In this document: one piece after another, positions 29,497 to 63,585 of the stretch
Position numbering within the stretch: position 1 is the stretch's first letter
Layout: each line of letters starts with the position of its first letter
Source: Candidatus Borrarchaeum yapensis
GTDB taxonomy: Archaea; Asgardarchaeota; Sifarchaeia; Borrarchaeales; Borrarchaeaceae
Direction of reading: 5' to 3'
DNA length: 64,000 nt
Assembly: GCA_016840515.1 (NCBI GenBank)
Contig: JAEOSF010000002.1
Coordinates: 47,918 to 111,917, forward strand
The notes under the pieces: model-generated
What the model was told of the DNA's origin: nothing
Databases searched by the model: none
Seen by the model: the letters and a program-made list of their open reading frames with translations, nothing else
Made by a program: the position numbers and the translations under genes

Positions 29497-30065
29497 TAGC
29501 TAAGCAAGAAAGCACCACAGCTTCAGCGTGGTGATGAATTGCGGTAGTGTGTGTGTTCACTTTCATCATGGGGTCTCCTTAATACTTAAATAGTGGTGTG
29601 CCTCTCATACAGTGATGACTATCACGAGGACGGCAGGCAGGGATCGATACAAAACTATGGCTCTTGGTAGCATCACAGCTCATACCATGTTATCCGCTGC
29701 ATTCGGAGGGATCATACGCACACTTGCAGATAAGGTGCATACTCCGATTAAAGTCGAGAGGTGGTTTGCTTCCACCAAAACCTGTTCGCGTTGCGGGAAT
29801 ATCCGGAAAATAGGATTGGATGAACGAGTCTATATCTGTCCGGTCTGTGGTTTGGTGATGGACAGAGATCATAATTCAAGTATTAACTTAGAACACGAAG
29901 GGTTAACACAACAAGTGGTACCTACGGGACGTAGGGATGTTAAGCCTGTGGAGACTGAATCCTCTACTGTGATATCGCTGGAATACCTAAACCGTATTCC
30001 TTATGTGACAGCAAGTTCGGTCATCGAAGCAGGAAGCCTCACTGCTTGAGCGTGAGGTAGTTCAC
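29497..30065 (+). mobile_element. IS200/IS605-family element remnant with truncated tnpB (copy C)
   Basis: Same left and right ends as copies A and B. The internal ORF is a TnpB C-terminal fragment only. Confidence 0.65.
29612..30049 (+). pseudogene. tnpB: TnpB (IS605 OrfB) C-terminal fragment: RuvC-III plus zinc finger
   Basis: WFASTKTCSRCG...YICPVCGLVMDRDHNSSINL is the canonical TnpB C-terminus. The N-terminal ~250 aa are missing. Confidence 0.65.
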
Positions 30066-34915: not shown

Positions 34916-37879
34916 TTACTCGATTGGCATTCTATACGCCGCTTCATTGTTTGCGCCACAAGCCGGGCAAATTACAGTTTCCATGACATTATACGGTTCA
35001 CCACAATCCATACACAATTGTGGGGCTGTTTCGTCTACTGAGATCTTGTAACCAAGTCCATCCTTTTTCTCTGCTTTTAGGTTAAATCCCGTCCCAGGTT
35101 CTTTTATTGGTGGAACGAAATCTTTTTCCCTATAAAAGTATTTAATATCAATTGCACTGCCGGTTCCAACATTCTTAGTACTTGCACATCCGTAAGGATA
35201 TCTAAAGAAGTTAAAGTCTGTTGCTGCCATTTGTTTTCCACAGATCCCTTTAGCTGGACCTCCAACATCGACAAAATATTTCCCAAGCACTTTTGTACGA
35301 GCCTTCATTCCATCAGTGGTTTTTGCTTCTCTCTCCTTTGCGCCCTTAGTCTTTAATCCTAAAGAAGAGCCAATTGAGTCAAACGCTCGACCGATACCTG
35401 ATTTCGCTGCACCAATTGCATATTTAATTACCGCACTCGCTGCTCCCGCACCCTCGAATTGAGCTACAAATGCGTCATATGTAGCCTTACGGAGAACCGA
35501 AGGTATGGGTGTGTGGAAGTTCGTTGCAAACGTGACCTTAATCATTATTTCTTCATCCAGTTCTGGTACCCTGTACCAAAGTTCGCGCCAATGATAATCT
35601 GAGATGATCCACTCTGGCTTCCCCGTATTCGCATTGACCCACAACTCGATCCTTTCCCAGTCCTCGTGCTCCAATCCTTTACTGCCAACGGTAAGCTCAA
35701 AGGGCCACCAAAAGAGGTTTCTAAAGACCCAATACTGGTCCCCCTTAAGCCAGACAGGCGCATCTTCCTGAGATTGCATTGGAAAAGCTTCGGGTCTCTT
35801 ATCATACCAATAGAGGTTCATGTTTTCTGAGCCAAGCACTTGAACAGATCCTATGCCTAAGATGAAGTTTATGAGAAGCATTATATATAGGCCGTTAGTT
35901 TCGAATCGGATCAGATCTTCGTTAGCTCCTGTAACAATGAACGTCCCCAGACTGTTAACCGTGTAGGTTATGTACAGCATGATTACGACAATGATTAAAG
36001 CTACGATTAAGAAGCTAGATGAAGCTTCTGGTCGCTCGTTTACTGTTTGTTCGAATAAGCCGTACCACTTGAACATAAAGAAGAACAAGAAGATAAGAAC
36101 AACTATCTGGGTAACTGCAAGTCCTAGAAATTCGATTCCACCGCCAATTACTGTGAAATTAACGTAGATACTATAGCCTACAAGTACCAATGTGACAGCC
36201 AACAGCACATAAATGATTGGACGCATCGCGGTAACTAACGTACGCTGAAATACTAGATTCATTGGACTCCATACTGGGGAATATTTGTCAGCTAGTACCT
36301 TTGGATCATAAAAGTCTCCGATGTGCTTATTATTGTATTCAACTCTTGCTTTTTCTGAACCCTTAATCGGCTGGACGCCTATCGATTTCAAAGGCTTTGG
36401 AACCGTCTCCCAGTGCTTACTTCTGTCCATGTAGCGAAAAGAAACGTATTCACCGAATCTTGGTAAGTCAGTCTGTTTTAGATCAAGGTCTAAAATTTGA
36501 TCCAAATCTAACTTGAATTGTTCAGCGTTCTCAAATTCGTTTTCTTTGTTCTTTCCGTGAATGAAGTAGTTTGACCATAAGTCGCGGAACAGATATGCCG
36601 TTCTGAATCTCTTTGCTAAATCTCCTTCCTCAGGAATCTCTGTATATGCCATTGTAAAGTAGTTTCCAACTGAACCCCATAGACCACCCCATAGAGCTGC
36701 TAATACAAGTAGCAAACCATTGACCACATAGATGGATATCTCTGGAGGTGAATAGCGAATCAATGGAACAAATGGAAAGCCAATAAGCCCGATGATCTCA
36801 AGAGATGGATCGCCTTGAATGATTGCACTGAAATATGAAAGGCTAGTAGTGATACCAATGAGCAGTCCTTGCCAGAAATGGGCACTACGAAAAGCTATGG
36901 GTGTTACAATGAGTGACGGAACGAGAAATATCAGCACCTGACGTAAAACAATGTTTTGAACACCGCTTGGGAAATATATGGCGATGGCAAAATACGATAC
37001 GAGTGCTCCAAGTAACGCAACGATCCATAGAGCTAACACTAGTTTCATCTTGATAAAGTCTTGAAACGAATTCATGATATATTTTGTGAAGTTAAACTGG
37101 TTGAAAAATCCTCCAGCAAAGCCAGAAATTATGAATAGAACTAAGATTTGAATGTACCATCCGTCAGGGGGTATAACTTCCGTATCCCAGAAAAATAGCC
37201 ACAAACCGACAAGCGTACCAATCGCACCGAACACACCAACAATTATTCCTTCGACAAGCCCAGTTTCTACAGGCATAATTGTTCCAAGGATTATTGCAAG
37301 TAGCCCTGCAACAGCGAAAACCACTGCCCAGACATAAGGACCTATAAGTACTGGATACTCAAGTGACCCAGTAAATACAGCAGGAGGTAGCAGAAGACCT
37401 ATTAATACAAAGATGACTCCACATGCAAAGAAATCAATTGCCCATTGCCACATTTCATAGCCGCCGATGACTTTATCTTTAAGTGGAGAATTGAGGAGTG
37501 CAAATACCCCTGCAATAACAACTAATACAACTGCTGTGATAAAAGGTCTGTAGAGGACAAATTCAAGGGTGCTAACTACCATTAACCCCGCTGTAATTAG
37601 TACAATGACGCCCAAGGTACGCAAAATGTTTTTCCATTTTTCGGCTTCTGGCAAAAGCGTCATTACGAAGACGATGAGCGGTAGTGCAAGCGTGACATTA
37701 TATGCGAAATCGGGGAAAGTAAATATATCGTAGTAGGGCCAATTTTCTGCGTAAAGACCAATGAAGAATAGGTAATCAATTATGTTGTCTAGCCATGCAA
37801 ACCATGCGACAAACGCTACTATAATGTATACAATTATTTTTCTTCCTGAAAAGTACGATGAAACTCCCATTTTCGTCAA
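34916..37879 (-). CDS. Large polytopic membrane protein (987 aa) with C-terminal cytoplasmic domain and zinc ribbon
   Basis: About 20 predicted TM helices in the first ~650 aa. C-terminal CMDCGEPYNVMETVICPACG zinc ribbon. Oligo-T terminator downstream. Confidence 0.5.
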   Translation of the reverse strand: MTKMGVSSYFSGRKIIVYIIVAFVAWFAWLDNIIDYLFFIGLYAENWPYYDIFTFPDFAYNVTLALPLIVFVMTLLPEAEKWKNILRTLGVIVLITAGLMVVSTLEFVLYRPFITAVVLVVIAGVFALLNSPLKDKVIGGYEMWQWAIDFFACGVIFVLIGLLLPPAVFTGSLEYPVLIGPYVWAVVFAVAGLLAIILGTIMPVETGLVEGIIVGVFGAIGTLVGLWLFFWDTEVIPPDGWYIQILVLFIISGFAGGFFNQFNFTKYIMNSFQDFIKMKLVLALWIVALLGALVSYFAIAIYFPSGVQNIVLRQVLIFLVPSLIVTPIAFRSAHFWQGLLIGITTSLSYFSAIIQGDPSLEIIGLIGFPFVPLIRYSPPEISIYVVNGLLLVLAALWGGLWGSVGNYFTMAYTEIPEEGDLAKRFRTAYLFRDLWSNYFIHGKNKENEFENAEQFKLDLDQILDLDLKQTDLPRFGEYVSFRYMDRSKHWETVPKPLKSIGVQPIKGSEKARVEYNNKHIGDFYDPKVLADKYSPVWSPMNLVFQRTLVTAMRPIIYVLLAVTLVLVGYSIYVNFTVIGGGIEFLGLAVTQIVVLIFLFFFMFKWYGLFEQTVNERPEASSSFLIVALIIVVIMLYITYTVNSLGTFIVTGANEDLIRFETNGLYIMLLINFILGIGSVQVLGSENMNLYWYDKRPEAFPMQSQEDAPVWLKGDQYWVFRNLFWWPFELTVGSKGLEHEDWERIELWVNANTGKPEWIISDYHWRELWYRVPELDEEIMIKVTFATNFHTPIPSVLRKATYDAFVAQFEGAGAASAVIKYAIGAAKSGIGRAFDSIGSSLGLKTKGAKEREAKTTDGMKARTKVLGKYFVDVGGPAKGICGKQMAATDFNFFRYPYGCASTKNVGTGSAIDIKYFYREKDFVPPIKEPGTGFNLKAEKKDGLGYKISVDETAPQLCMDCGEPYNVMETVICPACGANNEAAYRMPIE

Positions 37880-38302: not shown

Positions 38303-39814
38303 TTGGCAAAAAACTGGAGGACTAAAACATTGCCGGCATGTCCTAGTTGCAGAAGAACACTAAGAGAAGGTCTAAGATTCTGTACTTATTGTGGCTCACC
38401 ACTTGTTCCACGCTTTAGAAAAACTCCAATAAAGCTGACATCAACGAAATTTATTGAAGAAGGTAAGAAAAAAGAAAAATTGGCTAATTACATTTGTGTA
38501 CACTGCGGAAAATTCGCTAACTTTTACTGTCCTGAACATGGCATGTTTTGCAAGAATTGTGCATCTAAAAAAATTTCATTCTGTCCATCTTGTGGGATAG
38601 GATTTCAATCAGCGCCACCTAATGCTAAATGCCAGACTATATTAAATTCATTGTGCCCTCAATGTGGTAAGCAACTGGTTCTTGCGCAATTTCAAAAAGG
38701 AGGCGTCTTTGACTCATCTGCTCCTGATTATAAAGTTATGTGTGTAGCTTGTGGGTGGGAGTCTTCAAAATCAAAGCCAAAAATCATTGAAGATAGCATG
38801 GCTGACATATTTAATCAACTAAATAAGAAAAAGTTGGTTAAAGCTGGAGCCCATCCTGTTTTATGCAGCAGAAATCTAGTGAATACCGGTTGTCCTGTTT
38901 GTAATCGTATGGGAATCCCTATTCTTAGGGTATTGCCGGGTATAAATGTTGAAACTGTTGAGGCAATTAAAGTTGGAAATAAGATCCCACTTGTTTTGAC
39001 TATAACAGCAAAATTACCAACTGAGTTGAAATTACACTTCCCTATTTTGAATAAAGACATTTCAGCTGCATTAAAGAAAGATGAAAGTAAAGAAATAGAA
39101 TTAGAACTGCCAGCAGGTGAAGTTGGTATATTTTCGATACGTGCCCAAGCTACTATAACTGCAGGGAATTTTCAACTAACATCTACAGATGTCAATCTCA
39201 CGCCAATATTCGTTCTACCTAACATTGAGATAGAAAGAGAAGCTAAGGCGTTATATATTGACCATGAAGGGCTTATTTCGGTAGATATCCGTAATAAATC
39301 AGATTTCGAAGTTACTAATATTCAGGTCAAAACAGATTTTCCGTCTGAATTTAAAGAAGGAAAAGGTAATGGGAAGCAAATAGAGAGAATTCGTCCTGGT
39401 ACATATAGAGCCATTGACTTCAAGGTTACACCAACAGTTGGTGGATTGTATTCCTTAAATCCCACTAAGGTTCTTTTTAATGCCCCTAAAATCTTTAAAT
39501 CTCAAAAATTTGTTATTTACAGCGAGCGACTTACTATTGAGATCGGTAGAGCATATATGGATATCGTAGATCCAGTTACGGCTGCTGCGGCTTCAGCAGG
39601 GACTAATTCCAAACCAACTGGAATGATCATTAAGGAGAGAATTATCGAGAAGAAAGAAGAAGTCGTATTAATAAAGACCGTTCCCACAAGCTGTTCAGAA
39701 TGTGGTGCGCCTTTGAGCGAGGAAAGCGTGGATTGGGTAGGACCCGAGAAATTCAAGTGTCCAACTTGTGGAAGCACATTAAGTATGAAACTTGAAAGAC
39801 AAAAGTCGGTTTAA
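38303..39814 (+). CDS. Multi-zinc-ribbon protein with predicted beta-sandwich domains
   Basis: At least six CxxC...CxxC pairs in the first 200 aa and another at the C-terminus. The middle region shows an alternating beta pattern. Confidence 0.5.
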   Translation: MAKNWRTKTLPACPSCRRTLREGLRFCTYCGSPLVPRFRKTPIKLTSTKFIEEGKKKEKLANYICVHCGKFANFYCPEHGMFCKNCASKKISFCPSCGIGFQSAPPNAKCQTILNSLCPQCGKQLVLAQFQKGGVFDSSAPDYKVMCVACGWESSKSKPKIIEDSMADIFNQLNKKKLVKAGAHPVLCSRNLVNTGCPVCNRMGIPILRVLPGINVETVEAIKVGNKIPLVLTITAKLPTELKLHFPILNKDISAALKKDESKEIELELPAGEVGIFSIRAQATITAGNFQLTSTDVNLTPIFVLPNIEIEREAKALYIDHEGLISVDIRNKSDFEVTNIQVKTDFPSEFKEGKGNGKQIERIRPGTYRAIDFKVTPTVGGLYSLNPTKVLFNAPKIFKSQKFVIYSERLTIEIGRAYMDIVDPVTAAAASAGTNSKPTGMIIKERIIEKKEEVVLIKTVPTSCSECGAPLSEESVDWVGPEKFKCPTCGSTLSMKLERQKSV

Positions 39815-39848: not shown

Positions 39849-41009
39849 ATGGAAAGGCTTAGAAAAATTAAGAATTATTTCAAATGGATTAAGCCTGGCT
39901 GGAGGAAGGAGATGCGAGAAAATTATGATCGTGTCTTAAAAGAAAAGATGTTAAATAGTTTGAAAAACTCAGATGAGCTATTAGGAGAGATCCAGAAAGC
40001 TTCGGTAGACTTAGGCAATGATGATGTATTAAAGTTAGGCGAAAGATTAAGAAAGAAATTGAACAGATTTCAACAAGACGTTGAGTTGATGGCCCCAATT
40101 TTTGAGGTCGAAAAACTCCATAAACAAAGCAAGACTGCTGATGGCCCAACAAAGTTTGATGTTACGTTAGAATCAGAGACATTCAAAAACCTTGTTGGAA
40201 TAGATATGCTTACTTTATTTGAAGTAGATTCAATAACTGAAATTTTTCGAGAAACTTTACTTCCTAAGGTAGAAGATGGTAATGCTGAAGACGCAAAGAA
40301 AGCTCTAAGAGAAATAAAGAGTGAGATGGATGATGTAGTGAGTCTTTTCAAAAAGAGGAATGATTTATTGTTAGGTGTGACCCCAGCAGATCACATTTAC
40401 CAAGCAATACCTGGTAGATGGCATGATGTATACAAAAATATCGAAGAAATCCTTGACGAAAAATTATGGCAAATGAAACATCGAGAAAAGGACAAAGTCA
40501 GAGAAGTTAGAAAAGCAATGGAAGACGAAAAAGCAAAAAAACCAAGACTTTTTGGCAAAGGCGACTATTATGAGAAACTTGGTGAAGAAATTCTTAAACT
40601 CAAAGATATGATCAAAAATGAAACAGGAGGCATCTGTTCGCTAGCAGATCTTTACATGAAAATGCGTGAGCGTAGATTAGACATAGAATTCAATGTAAAT
40701 GATATTGAAAAAGCAGTTAAAAAATTAGATAAAGCAGGAATGATAGCTAATATGCATGTATTACCTTCAGGCTTAAAACTAATAGAATTTGTGCCAGTTG
40801 GCATGACAGAAGATTCACGAACAGTACTTGAGATTGCTTCAACCTCTAATGGCTATATTTCCCTTGAAGATCTGATGATAAAAACACAATGGGACAATGA
40901 ACGCGTAATGCGTGCTTTACAAACCCTTGAGCAAGAAGGAGTTACCCGACGTGATTCAAGTTATGCTGGAGGCACAGCTTGGTATGTACCAAGCCTATAT
41001 AAAGGATAA
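39849..41009 (+). CDS. Coiled-coil protein with C-terminal tandem winged-helix, EAP30 (ESCRT-II Vps22/Vps36)-like
   Basis: C-terminal GGICSLADLYMKMRER...DIEKAVKKLDKAGMIANMHVLPSGLKLIEF (WH1) then ISLEDLMIKTQWDNERVMRALQTLEQEGVTRRDSSYAGGTAWYVPSLY (WH2), with an ending reminiscent of the ...YWFPSLF motif of Vps22/36. Confidence 0.45.
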   Translation: MERLRKIKNYFKWIKPGWRKEMRENYDRVLKEKMLNSLKNSDELLGEIQKASVDLGNDDVLKLGERLRKKLNRFQQDVELMAPIFEVEKLHKQSKTADGPTKFDVTLESETFKNLVGIDMLTLFEVDSITEIFRETLLPKVEDGNAEDAKKALREIKSEMDDVVSLFKKRNDLLLGVTPADHIYQAIPGRWHDVYKNIEEILDEKLWQMKHREKDKVREVRKAMEDEKAKKPRLFGKGDYYEKLGEEILKLKDMIKNETGGICSLADLYMKMRERRLDIEFNVNDIEKAVKKLDKAGMIANMHVLPSGLKLIEFVPVGMTEDSRTVLEIASTSNGYISLEDLMIKTQWDNERVMRALQTLEQEGVTRRDSSYAGGTAWYVPSLYKG

Positions 41010-41026: not shown

Positions 41027-42598
41027 ATGTCATCGATTAAAGAATGGTTTAGAACTAGGAAAGTAGACAAGGATGTTAAAAGAGTAGCAGACAAAGGATT
41101 GGACGCTGATGAGGTAATTGAGAAGGAATGGGGTAGAGATCGATATACATACATTTGGAACCACCAAGTATATCCTGGAATAATACATCGACTTACGTAT
41201 GAAGATATTATGAATGCTCCTCCAATTTATGATATGCATTGTCCGGGATGTAGAAAACTAGCAGAAGCAAGGAAATGTCCAAAATGTGGAACACTTGCAA
41301 ATAAAGGACAACAATTCTGTAGAAAATGTGGAGCAGATATACCTACCGAACGAGTTTCTACAATAAAAGCAGGTCAGCCTTTCTGTAAGAAGTGTGGATA
41401 TGATGCGAGACTTCAGGAACCCATTCGAGGATTCGTTGTACGATCGTATGAAAAAGCATTGTTTTATAAACAGGGAGCTTTGGTAGGAGAATTAAGTGCA
41501 GGAGTATATGATTTAATACCAGAAGAAGAGAGAAAAATTGAAGAAAAAGCGAGAGAGCGTGCACAAGAATTAGAAGCGTCAGGGAGACTGGACAAAGCAT
41601 GGAGGAAAGAGGATTCTAAAGGACTACTTCACAAAATCTTTAGCGGAATGGATGTACGAAAGCTCTACAGTGCACTAGTTGGCACTGAAATCATATGGGT
41701 AAATACACGGGAATATAAACTTTCCTGGGGAGTTCCAAAACGTATCTATACACAAGATAAGGTGAAGATTGGAGCCTCAGGCACGGCGTACGTCAAAATT
41801 AGTGAGCCTAAACGCCTCGTTCAAAACTTTATTGGTGGTAAGGAGAAATTAGCGCCTGATGAGTTTGATAACTGGGCAAAGGACTCCATGAGAGGAATTG
41901 TAACTCAAACATTATCCACCTATCCATTAGAAGATGTGTTTTCAAATCGCGAAGGTATTTCCACTAAAGCAAAAGTAATCGCTGAGAATACATTTGGTGA
42001 TTGGGGAGTCCAGTTAGCGCGACTTGAAATAGCAACCATCGCTGGAGCTGAAGAGTACGAAGAATTAGTTATACAAAAAACTGCCAAGGCGAAAATGATA
42101 AGTTCCGAAACAGAACTTGCGATGCTTGAAAAAGAAAAGGAGTTAAAACTAGCAGAATTAGAAGCTATGAAAGCAAAATATGAAGCACTCTCATCAACTG
42201 CTGAAGATGAAGCACTTGCAAGAATAGAAGCCGAAAAGTACGCTACAATGAAAGGTATTGACGCAGAGTTGTATTTAAGAGCCAAAGAAGCGGGTATAAG
42301 CGTTGAGGAACTTGTAAAAGCTGAAGGATATCGAGAACTAGGTAAGAAAGGTGTCTCAATTGATGCATCCCCAACAATAGTCACCGGAGCTGGTGTTGTT
42401 CCAGTCGCAGGTCCATCAACGATTCCAACCAAGTCTACTGATGCAGATAAAATTAAAAAAGAGATAGGTGAGCGCCAACAGAGAATAGAAAAAGCAGATG
42501 ATCTCCTCCTTGATGGAAAGATTTCCGAGGAGAAGCACTCAGATTTAGTTATACGCCTGAAGAAGGAGATTGCAGAGCTCAAAGCACAGTTAGGTTAA
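41027..42598 (+). CDS. Zinc-ribbon plus SPFH/band-7 (flotillin/stomatin-like) protein with C-terminal coiled coil
   Basis: N-terminal CPGCRK...CPKCG...CRKCG...CKKCG ribbons. Central SPFH-like block (GFVVRSYEKALFYKQGALVGELSAGVYDLIP...) followed by an EA-rich heptad coiled coil. Confidence 0.5.
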   Translation: MSSIKEWFRTRKVDKDVKRVADKGLDADEVIEKEWGRDRYTYIWNHQVYPGIIHRLTYEDIMNAPPIYDMHCPGCRKLAEARKCPKCGTLANKGQQFCRKCGADIPTERVSTIKAGQPFCKKCGYDARLQEPIRGFVVRSYEKALFYKQGALVGELSAGVYDLIPEEERKIEEKARERAQELEASGRLDKAWRKEDSKGLLHKIFSGMDVRKLYSALVGTEIIWVNTREYKLSWGVPKRIYTQDKVKIGASGTAYVKISEPKRLVQNFIGGKEKLAPDEFDNWAKDSMRGIVTQTLSTYPLEDVFSNREGISTKAKVIAENTFGDWGVQLARLEIATIAGAEEYEELVIQKTAKAKMISSETELAMLEKEKELKLAELEAMKAKYEALSSTAEDEALARIEAEKYATMKGIDAELYLRAKEAGISVEELVKAEGYRELGKKGVSIDASPTIVTGAGVVPVAGPSTIPTKSTDADKIKKEIGERQQRIEKADDLLLDGKISEEKHSDLVIRLKKEIAELKAQLG

Positions 42599-42971
42599 AT
42601 AATAGTGTTTCAACCCCATAAAAGAGCAATCTATGTAAAAAATCTCAAAATATCAAATCTTTCACTTTTTTTATCCCTTTTTTGAATTTTTTGATTCTAA
42701 GCAAAAAAAATAGTCTATACAGATATTAAAGCATCAATTCTTTTTTTTTGCAAAAATTTCGCAGTTTTATTCACAGTCTTGGTCTTGTTGTATAACGAAA
42801 AGGATAGTTTATTTAAATTGGGAATTTAAGAAAAGAGATATTGGTTTCCTTTTTCTTCTCTTTAGAGATAAAGAGAAAAAATAAGGCTCAAATTGACAAA
42901 TGCCAAATGTTTATAAATGAATTAAATCTAGTATCGAAAATACTAGAATAGAGGAACAAAATCTCGTATCG

Positions 42972-50904: not shown

Positions 50905-51007
50905 TGGTGCGGCTGGCAGGATTTGAACCTGCGACAACCGGATCTTCAGTCCGGCGCTATAGGTATTTAAAAGATTGTTTAATTCTCCCTGTCTAAGCTA
51001 CAGCCGC
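50905..51007 (-). tRNA. tRNA-Phe(GAA) with 25-nt intron in the D-arm; CCA encoded
   Basis: Reverse complement GCGGCTG TA GCTT AGACAGGGAG A[25 nt]AGC G CCGGA CTGAAGA TCCGG TTGTC GCAGG TTCAAAT CCTGC CAGCCGC ACCA. Confidence 0.65.
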
Positions 51008-62622: not shown

Positions 62623-63585
62623 TCATGGCGTTGCTTCTAGAATTGCTGAGACAGTTCGTTTCTTAGCCTGGCGAAGAATTACTATTTCCACTTTATCCCC
62701 AGGATTTATTTTCTCGGTTTCAGCTACTAATTCTTCAGCCGTATTTATTTCTTTTCCATTAAATTCGAGAACAATGTCGCCAGGAATTATTCCAGCCTTT
62801 TCTGCAGGACTTCCTCTGCCAACTTGTGCGAGAAAAACGCCCTGTTCTGTTGGGAAACCATAATAAGCTGCTGCTTCTTTTGTTAAAGTTAATCCACTGA
62901 TACCTAGAAAGGCTTTTGTATGAGCTCCATTGGCAACAATTTCGGTGCCACATTGTTTAGCTATATTCATGGGGATTGCGAAGCCGATGCCCTGGGCAAA
63001 GGGAATAATTGCGGTGTTGACACCGATGATATTTCCTTGCATGTCAATCAATGCGCCACCGCTGTTACCTGGGTTAATAGCCGCATCGGTCTGGAGGAGA
63101 CCTTCAATCATGCCTTTTTGTGTTTTAATAGTTCGGTTCAGCGCACTTACAACTCCAAAAGTGACAGAGGGTCCTCCTACAAGCCCTAATGGATTACCAA
63201 TTGCATAAACTCTTTGACCCACACGCACTTTTTCTGAATCTCCCAATTCAGCAACAGGGAGATCTTTTTTCTCAACTTGGATCACAGCAATATCATGGGT
63301 TGTGCAACCGCCAATGATTATGCCCTTTACTACACTTCCATCTGTAAATGCTATCGCGATCTCCTTAGCACCTTCAATAACGTGTCTATTTGTTAAAATC
63401 AGTCCGTCTTCTTCTATTATGATGCCTGATCCCGCTCCTCGAACGGGTACCGCTTGATAGAAATTGCGTTGCATAAGTTTTAGGGTACCTATATTCACCA
63501 CACTAAGGCTTACTTTTTCTAACATCTCTACAACTTCAAGCTCATCATAATTTGACAAATCGTTCACCGCTAAATGCTTTCGCAA
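62623..63585 (-). CDS. HtrA/DegP-family serine protease with PDZ domain
   Basis: GNSGGAL catalytic Ser motif, TNRHV His, and a C-terminal PDZ. Confidence 0.75.
   Translation of the reverse strand: MRKHLAVNDLSNYDELEVVEMLEKVSLSVVNIGTLKLMQRNFYQAVPVRGAGSGIIIEEDGLILTNRHVIEGAKEIAIAFTDGSVVKGIIIGGCTTHDIAVIQVEKKDLPVAELGDSEKVRVGQRVYAIGNPLGLVGGPSVTFGVVSALNRTIKTQKGMIEGLLQTDAAINPGNSGGALIDMQGNIIGVNTAIIPFAQGIGFAIPMNIAKQCGTEIVANGAHTKAFLGISGLTLTKEAAAYYGFPTEQGVFLAQVGRGSPAEKAGIIPGDIVLEFNGKEINTAEELVAETEKINPGDKVEIVILRQAKKRTVSAILEATP

Follow-up and report, generated by a model that had tools for sequence, protein, structure and literature searches.

An Asgard archaeal SPFH protein without a transmembrane segment, encoded beside a Vps22-like protein

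A 64,000-nucleotide stretch of contig JAEOSF010000002.1 from Candidatus Borrarchaeum yapensis, referred to here as the window, contains at 41027..42598 (+) a gene for an SPFH/Band 7 protein (523 amino acids plus stop, with an ATG start in the list of open reading frames (ORFs)). Directly upstream lies a gene for a Vps22/EAP30-like protein, and such a gene adjoins the SPFH homologue on the same strand in 47 of 50 testable loci. The reading that we lean towards is that the protein is a cytoplasmic Asgard SPFH scaffold without a transmembrane (TM) segment, related to the Band_7_1/YdjI class, that works with a Vps22-like adaptor. Positions are those of the window and residues those of the SPFH protein unless another sequence is named.

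Results and discussion

The SPFH gene is a genuine conserved gene under purifying selection. Comparison with five orthologues gave pairwise dN/dS values of 0.05–0.14; in the more distant pairs the synonymous sites were nearly saturated. Orthologues with 83–97% protein identity were found on several contigs from metagenomes or metagenome-assembled genomes (MAGs), and the nearest named genomes for the protein were a Promethearchaeota MAG (95% identity) and a Candidatus Borrarchaeota MAG (87%). The ATG is 17 nt 3' of the stop codon of the preceding EAP30 gene and has the sequence GGAGAGG just 5' of it. T-rich runs at 42660..42700 (+), read from the sequence 3' of the SPFH stop codon, suggest that the transcription unit ends after this gene; the next gene, S19e, begins 374 nt past the stop. 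The genes on this side (S19e, a PDCD5-like dsDNA-binding protein, L31e, eIF6, LX, prefoldin and FtsY) show that the window is archaeal. The locus sits in a housekeeping ribosomal-protein neighbourhood, whose synteny is kept in all close relatives.

The partner gene (39849..41009, +) encodes a protein of 386 residues with a helical N-terminal region followed by two winged helices. It matched Pfam PF04157 with E = 7.1e-17 (62.3 bits against a 26.8-bit cutoff), human SNF8/VPS22 with E = 3.9e-16 over both winged helices, and yeast Vps22 with E = 3e-6. Its N-terminus (IKNYFKWIKPGWRK) is basic and, according to a hydrophobic-moment calculation, amphipathic.

To assess the pairing, 54 loci were collected by an SPFH peptide motif only and EAP30 relatives were then sought in them. 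The locus search used a 13-sequence alignment, one of 60 sequences being too divergent. An EAP30 relative was detected by jackhmmer in 45 loci. In 43 of these the EAP30 gene was upstream on the same strand, 1–81 nt from the SPFH start, and in loci L022 and L023 it was downstream of the SPFH gene by 70 nt. In L020 and L025 the C-terminus of an EAP30 protein was recognised by eye in fragments below the ORF cutoff. Four of the 54 loci have no upstream DNA, leaving the 50 testable loci referred to above. There are three exceptions: L015 and L038, where about 415 nt of upstream sequence contains no EAP30 gene, and L053, where the upstream gene is as in L022 and L023 and the locus stops before the expected EAP30 position. 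The paired loci fall into 19 SPFH clusters when grouped at 70% identity and represent all four of those obtained at 40%, with 21–31% identity to the query, and the named genomes among the loci are all Asgard (Promethearchaeota, Borrarchaeota, Promethearchaeia and Hermodarchaeota MAGs). Same-strand adjacency on this scale, across 19 clusters and down to 21% identity, is strong evidence that the SPFH and Vps22-like genes form a functional pair. The pair is probably physical.

A divergent branch is made up of L022 (7194-10811), L023 and L053. Its SPFH protein has 717 residues and is lengthened at the N-terminus by a long helical part. Here the SPFH gene comes before the EAP30 gene, the reverse of the usual order, and a protein of 516–672 residues without a Pfam match precedes the pair.

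The central region of the window protein had been assigned to the SPFH family in an earlier note made from the sequence alone, and profile searches agreed with this. Pfam PF01145 (Band_7) matched residues 137–371 with E = 1.2e-16 (61.7 bits against a 23.6-bit cutoff; profile positions 2–176 of 176). PF13421 (Band_7_1) was also above its threshold, with E = 7.3e-12 (45.8 bits against a 24-bit cutoff) and only profile positions 68–209 covered. Stomatin was among the PDB sequence matches. A monomer model was built with AlphaFold2 (AF2) from 60 family sequences, giving a mean predicted local distance difference test score (pLDDT) of 80.3. When the model was compared with the PDB using Foldseek, the top matches were solely SPFH assemblies: human stomatin (9oh9, a 16-mer; E = 1.4e-11), HflK/C, prohibitin, flotillin, erlin and QmcA. 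These matches had E values of 1e-11 to 1e-7 and a probability of 1.00 over 280–400 columns, which comprise the SPFH domain and the helix; sequence identity was 11–17% when full-length chains were aligned and reached 22% at most in matches to the SPFH domain only. The model therefore predicts an SPFH α/β fold followed by an extended helix, an architecture that fits the ring- and basket-forming SPFH proteins.

Residues 1–65 (41027..41221, +) contain a family-conserved β-hairpin motif, YIWNHQVYPGIIHRL, with the pattern WNHxxxxGIIHRL. Its strands (41–43 and 53–56) have a pLDDT of 85–92, and the motif recurs in relatives, for example as LEWDHTRHEGLVRRLPD and VEWNHSLNPGVVWRFPD. After the zinc ribbons, which are considered below, comes the SPFH core (residues 135–341; 41429..42049, +), delimited by the Pfam Band_7 match and the AF2 model, with strand β1 at about residue 135. 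The pLDDT is above 90 over most of residues 220–340 and about 50 inside a helical insertion within the core (residues 166–218; 41522-41680, +). This insertion is missing from the relatives P0004–P0013. The core is followed by long Glu/Ala-rich helices (residues 342–440; 42050..42346, +), modelled as 342–388, 394–421 and 426–440 and equivalent to CC1/CC2 of the basket-forming SPFH proteins. A Gly/Pro/Val-rich linker (residues 441–469; 42347..42433, +) is predicted to be disordered (pLDDT 36–41) and is the most hydrophobic stretch of the protein. The chain ends in a Cys-free helical hairpin (residues 470–523; 42434..42595, +; pLDDT 91–98 over 470–522) with the family-wide motif DDLLLDGKISEEKH.

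The earlier note had described a Glu/Ala-rich coiled coil of about 150 residues. A helical region of this composition does follow the SPFH domain, but in the model it is only about 100 residues long and is separated by the linker from the distinct C-terminal hairpin. A SHOCT label for this hairpin was dropped, as no Pfam family, SHOCT included, matched it at E ≤ 1. Assignment of the whole protein as a flotillin was also rejected: NCBIfam FloT (NF058507) gave only 20.5 bits against a 700-bit cutoff.

No TM helix was found in the protein. The highest 19-residue Kyte–Doolittle mean was 1.31, at residues 443–461 in the linker that the AF2 model shows as disordered, and there is no hydrophobic hairpin; the lack of a TM segment reported in the earlier note was thus confirmed.

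The family was explored by an exhaustive profile search of 1.84 billion representative proteins, which gave 593 matches at E ≤ 1e-3, 97 of them reaching E ≤ 1e-10. A TM-like segment is missing in nearly all of the best 150 of the 593 relatives. The closer relatives share an N-terminal motif, (I/V)xW(D/N)HxxxxG(L/I/V)(V/I)xR(F/L), and a C-terminal hairpin motif, LLxxGKISExxY; the latter was seen in many relatives, including short forms of 280 residues. Like the YdjI class, more distant relatives have zinc ribbons at the C-terminus. Word-indexed searches with the SPFH protein, a 60-sequence profile or the EAP30 protein returned only close orthologues or generic stomatins of 255 residues and were uninformative for the family.

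In two family members, one from a Hermodarchaeota MAG (L010, 81-1373) and P0031, a TIR domain stands in place of the C-terminal helical hairpin. PADLOC models matched these proteins as ThsB/TIR-like (about 1e-3) and PDC-S66 (5e-7), hinting at a role in signalling or conflict for some members.

The motifs CPGC, CPKC, CRKC and CKKC named in the earlier note are present, at residues 72, 84, 98 and 120, and the protein has no other Cys. Four CxxC knuckles supply eight Cys, enough for no more than two Zn(Cys)4 ribbons (a 'double zinc ribbon') and not for the four first proposed. The Pfam matches over residues 71–105 were Zn_Ribbon_1 (E = 1.5e-7) and DZR (E = 2.8e-5). The ribbons (residues 72–123; 41240..41395, +) are also not N-terminal, since they are inserted between the conserved segment 1–65 and strand β1. 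The region is poorly ordered in the AF2 model. It is basic, with a net charge of +8 over residues 66–130, and all eight Cys are invariant across six orthologues.

In the representative search the fourfold CxxC insertion occurred only in the query's own cluster (P0002; orthologues P0001–P0003), and a few distant matches had other N-terminal CxxC motifs. Relatives at 21–31% identity have no ribbons, and at the insertion site other members have a short loop or long, unrelated helical inserts. The family as a whole is TM-less, and the ribbons and the 166–218 insertion are lineage-specific. On this comparison the ribbons are an addition peculiar to a Borrarchaeota-like lineage, placed in a variable loop behind the conserved N-terminal hairpin, and the helical insertion is a second such addition, inside the SPFH domain.

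These results bear on the suggestion of the earlier note that the ribbons stand in for a TM anchor and bring an SPFH cage to the place where it acts. The absence of a TM segment is in keeping with this idea, as are the strict conservation of the basic ribbons despite saturated synonymous divergence and the presence of ribbons in YdjI and many relatives (PMC8581546). Zinc-ribbon proteins are also encoded in the operon and by its divergent neighbour, making ribbon-mediated contacts plausible in this lineage. However, the ribbons are confined to one cluster and their loop holds unrelated inserts elsewhere, and the ribbon-less relatives are equally TM-less and have the same partner gene, so the ribbons cannot be the general anchor of the family. 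Recruitment through the ribbons is thus unlikely. The features found family-wide are the lack of a TM segment, the two hairpins and the adjacent Vps22-like gene, and the conserved Vps22-like partner appears to be a better candidate for recruitment. The combination of a TM-less SPFH protein with zinc ribbons is, moreover, less unusual than had been supposed: the Band_7_1/YdjI class (PF13421) is cytosolic and has a zinc finger (PMC8581546), many distant TM-less relatives have C-terminal ribbons, and an archaeal protein with SPFH, coiled-coil and zinc-ribbon parts has been described (PMC10936438).

The wider neighbourhood of the pair was then considered. Pfam counts over 146 neighbours gave 11 ThiF E1, eight UFC1-like E2, six PCI and five JAB proteins. 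These include a recurrent cassette that flanks the EAP30–SPFH pair on either side, in the order 360-residue protein ('c3'), ThiF E1, JAB protein, 88-residue protein and E2. It is found in L029 (315-4374), L034 (41-4073) and L009 (4542-8621), and also in L018, L032, L037, L041, L045, L046 and L054. The c3 protein carries a zinc ribbon at its C-terminus and matched nothing in Pfam or the PDB. The E1 is a minimal ThiF E1 (Pfam ThiF, E = 5e-50; CBASS E1–E2 models, 1e-14), the JAB protein has about 406 residues, and the 88-residue protein ends in DRGIVG and has no PDB sequence match. The E2 matches Pfam UFC1, and its PDB profile matches down to E = 1e-4 are all UFC1, the best having E = 1e-5. From these matches the cassette looks like a UFM1-type conjugation system. 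UFC1 and UFM1 were earlier held to be confined to eukaryotes (PMC10183829); in 2026 Asgard homologues of Ufm1 were reported (PMC12962969). The cassette is not near the pair in the window's lineage, where a 503-residue multi-zinc-ribbon protein precedes the pair instead.

LRR and WD40 proteins also recur near the SPFH/EAP30 pair. The neighbours in L019 (2888-5646), L045, L046 and L047 include runs of paralogous PCI-domain proteins of about 200–240 residues, some fused to WD40 propellers, together with LRR proteins; a profile of the PCI-like neighbours had no PDB sequence match.

The cassette could be taken to mean that the pair is a conflict or stress module, serving as the sensor or effector scaffold of a ubiquitin-like system akin to the bacterial Bil/CBASS-type E1–E2–JAB defence operons. 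Its E1, JAB, 88-residue and E2 genes adjoin the pair in many loci, the E1 matches the CBASS models, LRR proteins recur nearby, and the TIR domain replaces the C-terminal hairpin in two members. Against this, the E1 match to CBASS is generic and the Pfam ThiF match far stronger, while the E2 is specifically UFC1-like. PADLOC had no match for the SPFH, EAP30 or zinc-ribbon protein, no relatives were found on viral contigs, and the window locus lies in its syntenic housekeeping neighbourhood. A defence role for the pair is, on this evidence, distinctly unlikely.

In another reading, a very unlikely one, the SPFH protein builds a soluble cage away from membranes, vault-like or of some other kind, and the neighbouring winged-helix protein is the operon's transcription factor. 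The lack of a TM segment and of a hydrophobic hairpin would suit such a cage, further down the Foldseek list there are matches to the MVP shoulder/cap (E about 1e-6), and the EAP30-like protein of L009 has weak matches to TrmB/winged-helix regulators. Yet the repeat domains of MVP are absent and the best structural matches are membrane baskets. The partner fits ESCRT-II SNF8 over both winged helices (E = 4e-16), far better than any regulator family, and the gaps of 1–81 nt in nearly all loci suggest a stoichiometric partner over a regulator. Least probable of all is a stomatin- or HflK/C-type regulator of a membrane protease or NfeD partner, as the JGI label of the orthologues ('regulator of protease activity HflC') and the fold matches to HflK/C and QmcA might imply, since neither NfeD, FtsH nor another protease is recurrent among the neighbours or beside the window gene (20 kb separate it from an HtrA-like protease at 62623-63585), the protein lacks a TM segment that would position it by a membrane protease, and the FloT score is far below its cutoff.

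The preferred reading, a TM-less scaffold with a Vps22-like adaptor, would work as follows. By means of its helices and hairpin the SPFH protein would assemble into an oligomeric ring or basket at the cytoplasmic side of the membrane, and it would be one half of an obligate pair whose other half is the Vps22-like protein. The latter, with its basic amphipathic N-terminus and two winged helices, could provide membrane docking and could link the SPFH protein to cargo carrying a ubiquitin-like modification or to ESCRT components encoded elsewhere. The two basic ribbons, inserted in a variable surface loop, may offer one more surface to which acidic lipids, a ubiquitin-like protein or the adjacent zinc-ribbon protein could bind; they would be an accessory of the lineage and not the primary recruitment device. 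The logic would resemble that of YdjI/SamI, a soluble SPFH protein that is delivered to the membrane by partners and organises a protein of the ESCRT-III superfamily.

Several points weigh against this reading. Oligomerisation, membrane binding and contact between the two proteins are all deduced from monomer models and gene context. Short family members of about 280 residues have no long helices, so basket formation may not be universal. The AF2 model of the partner is of low confidence (pLDDT 56), and the sole basis for its N-terminal 'membrane helix' is the hydrophobic-moment calculation. The SPFH-linked EAP30 proteins, at 344–606 residues, are larger than the canonical Asgard Vps22 (about 245 residues in Makarova's Table S2), and they may be a paralogue with another role. 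No ORF with a Vps4-type GPPGxGK[ST] motif was present in any of the 54 loci, and Snf7/ESCRT-III and Vps25 were not among the top 25 recurrent neighbour families. Snf7, Vps4 and Vps25 were likewise not matched in the 64-kb window, in which ORFs of at least 110 residues were scanned. A link to the ESCRT machinery proper is thus unproven, although ESCRT-III, Vps4 or Vps25 may be encoded elsewhere in the genome. Vps4, NfeD and PspA were also outside the top 25 families, and PspA_IM30 was not matched in the scanned ORFs of the window.

A broader proposal is put forward tentatively and is, as a whole, rather less probable. The two-gene module of TM-less SPFH scaffold and Vps22-like adaptor may be physically and functionally coupled to UFM1-type conjugation (UFC1-like E2, minimal E1, JAB protein and the 88-residue protein ending in VG), and would then be a prokaryotic forerunner of the links that eukaryotes have between SPFH microdomains (erlin, flotillin), ubiquitin-like modification and ESCRT-type sorting. 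The window copy would then be a derived one, in which the conjugation cassette has been swapped for zinc-ribbon modules.

Among experimentally characterised proteins the closest analogue appears to be YdjI/SamI of B. subtilis, whose gene belongs to the pspA-ydjGHI operon. YdjI is soluble, has a zinc finger, requires YdjG/H for membrane localisation and recruits PspA (PMC8581546; bioRxiv 10.64898/2026.02.06.704340). Both are thus anchor-less SPFH proteins with zinc-binding modules, and the query passes the PF13421 threshold. YdjI also acts together with an ESCRT-superfamily component, PspA being ESCRT-III, and depends on its operon partners. The two differ in that the zinc finger of YdjI is C-terminal, whereas the ribbons of the query precede the SPFH core, and in that the query's partner is a Vps22/EAP30-like winged-helix protein instead of YdjG, YdjH or PspA and its host an Asgard archaeon instead of a bacterium.

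The closest described archaeal case seems to be a protein with SPFH, coiled-coil and zinc-ribbon parts from Methanosalsum zhilinae (WP_013898576), found in the 'Meth_adaptin' ESCRT loci (Makarova et al. 2024, PMC10936438); it is likened to the query by its described parts. Those loci also encode winged-helix (ESCRT-II-like) proteins and a zinc-ribbon protein with β-sandwich domains. They further contain Vps4, ESCRT-III and GOLD proteins, which were not found in the window or among the motif matches and recurrent neighbour families of the loci collected here, and adaptin-appendage (Ig plus TBP) proteins, one of which has a zinc ribbon; on the last point the window offers its 503-residue zinc-ribbon protein, with weak β-sandwich matches. 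The pairing with an EAP30-domain protein described here is Asgard-wide. In the available part of the Makarova neighbourhood table, stomatin/HflC entries occur in Thermococci only (PMC10936438).

The query shares the SPFH1/2 fold and the long helices that follow it with stomatin, HflK/C, prohibitin, flotillin, erlin and QmcA. It differs from these basket-forming proteins in having no TM, hairpin or lipidation anchor and in adding the N-terminal hairpin, zinc ribbons, helical insertion and C-terminal helical hairpin. Erlin and flotillin are tied to ubiquitin and to sorting pathways. For Vps27, the relevant source is PMC10936438. Baskets on the cytoplasmic face have been seen in a Heimdallarchaeon by electron cryo-tomography (bioRxiv 10.1101/2025.11.06.686947).

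The partner resembles eukaryotic and Asgard Vps22 (SNF8/EAP30) in its two C-terminal winged helices, and additional helical modules at the N-terminus are known from Asgard Vps22 proteins (PMC10936438). It is unlike canonical Vps22 in its length (386 against about 245 residues) and in having no neighbouring Vps25, Vps28 or ESCRT-III; it has the SPFH gene alongside it and, in many loci, the UFC1-like E2 cassette too.

Two neighbouring genes of the window also encode zinc-ribbon proteins. The 503-residue multi-zinc-ribbon protein (38303..39814, +) is the first gene of an apparent three-gene operon and is separated from the EAP30 gene by 34 nt. It has a β-rich middle and a C-terminal ribbon. Pfam gave DZR (E = 4.5e-9) and weak β-sandwich matches to NPCBM_assoc (0.0025) and TRAPPC13_C (0.078), and there was no PDB sequence match. 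Orthologues lie 5' of the EAP30 gene in L001, L002, L005, L007, L008 and L011, which are only close relatives of the window. Homology to the c3 family was rejected, as only a 35-column C-terminal ribbon aligned, with a probability of 48%. The divergent gene (34916..37879, –) encodes a polytopic membrane protein of 987 residues with a cytoplasmic C-terminal region that ends in a zinc ribbon; its only Pfam match was a weak one to the DUF7577 ribbon (0.002). It is kept at the same position in L007 and another syntenic contig, all close relatives, and is a possible, unproven membrane partner. Both proteins are conserved only among close relatives.

Elsewhere in the window, a 145-residue ORF at 29612-30049 (+) matched only a Cas12f1-like TNB domain (E = 2.4e-14). 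It is probably a remnant of the TnpB/Cas12f family and appears to be absent from a syntenic contig. At 50908-51007 (–) the Rfam tRNA model scored 61.7 bits over 100 nt for a 71-position model, and ARAGORN reported no tRNA in the window; the simplest explanation is an intron-containing archaeal tRNA.

Conclusions

TM-less SPFH proteins with zinc ribbons, and a contextual link between SPFH proteins and ESCRT, are already published. The Asgard-wide pairing of SPFH and Vps22-like genes and its association with a UFC1-like cassette were not found in the searchable, non-subscription literature. Even if the pair should prove ordinary, the window gene is now correctly annotated as an SPFH paralogue in which an insertion of zinc ribbons is specific to the lineage.

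Both SPFH baskets and ESCRT/ubiquitin-like sorting have a central place in how eukaryotic membranes are organised, and no closer relatives of eukaryotes are known than the Asgard archaea. The conserved SPFH–Vps22-like pair provides concrete, small, soluble proteins with which to study how anchor-less SPFH scaffolds reach membranes, and it may help to assign the basket-like structures on the inner membrane face of the cultured Heimdallarchaeon. It also allows one to ask whether the SPFH–ESCRT connection, seen with YdjI–PspA and in methanogens, was extended to an ESCRT-II/ubiquitin-like layer before eukaryogenesis.

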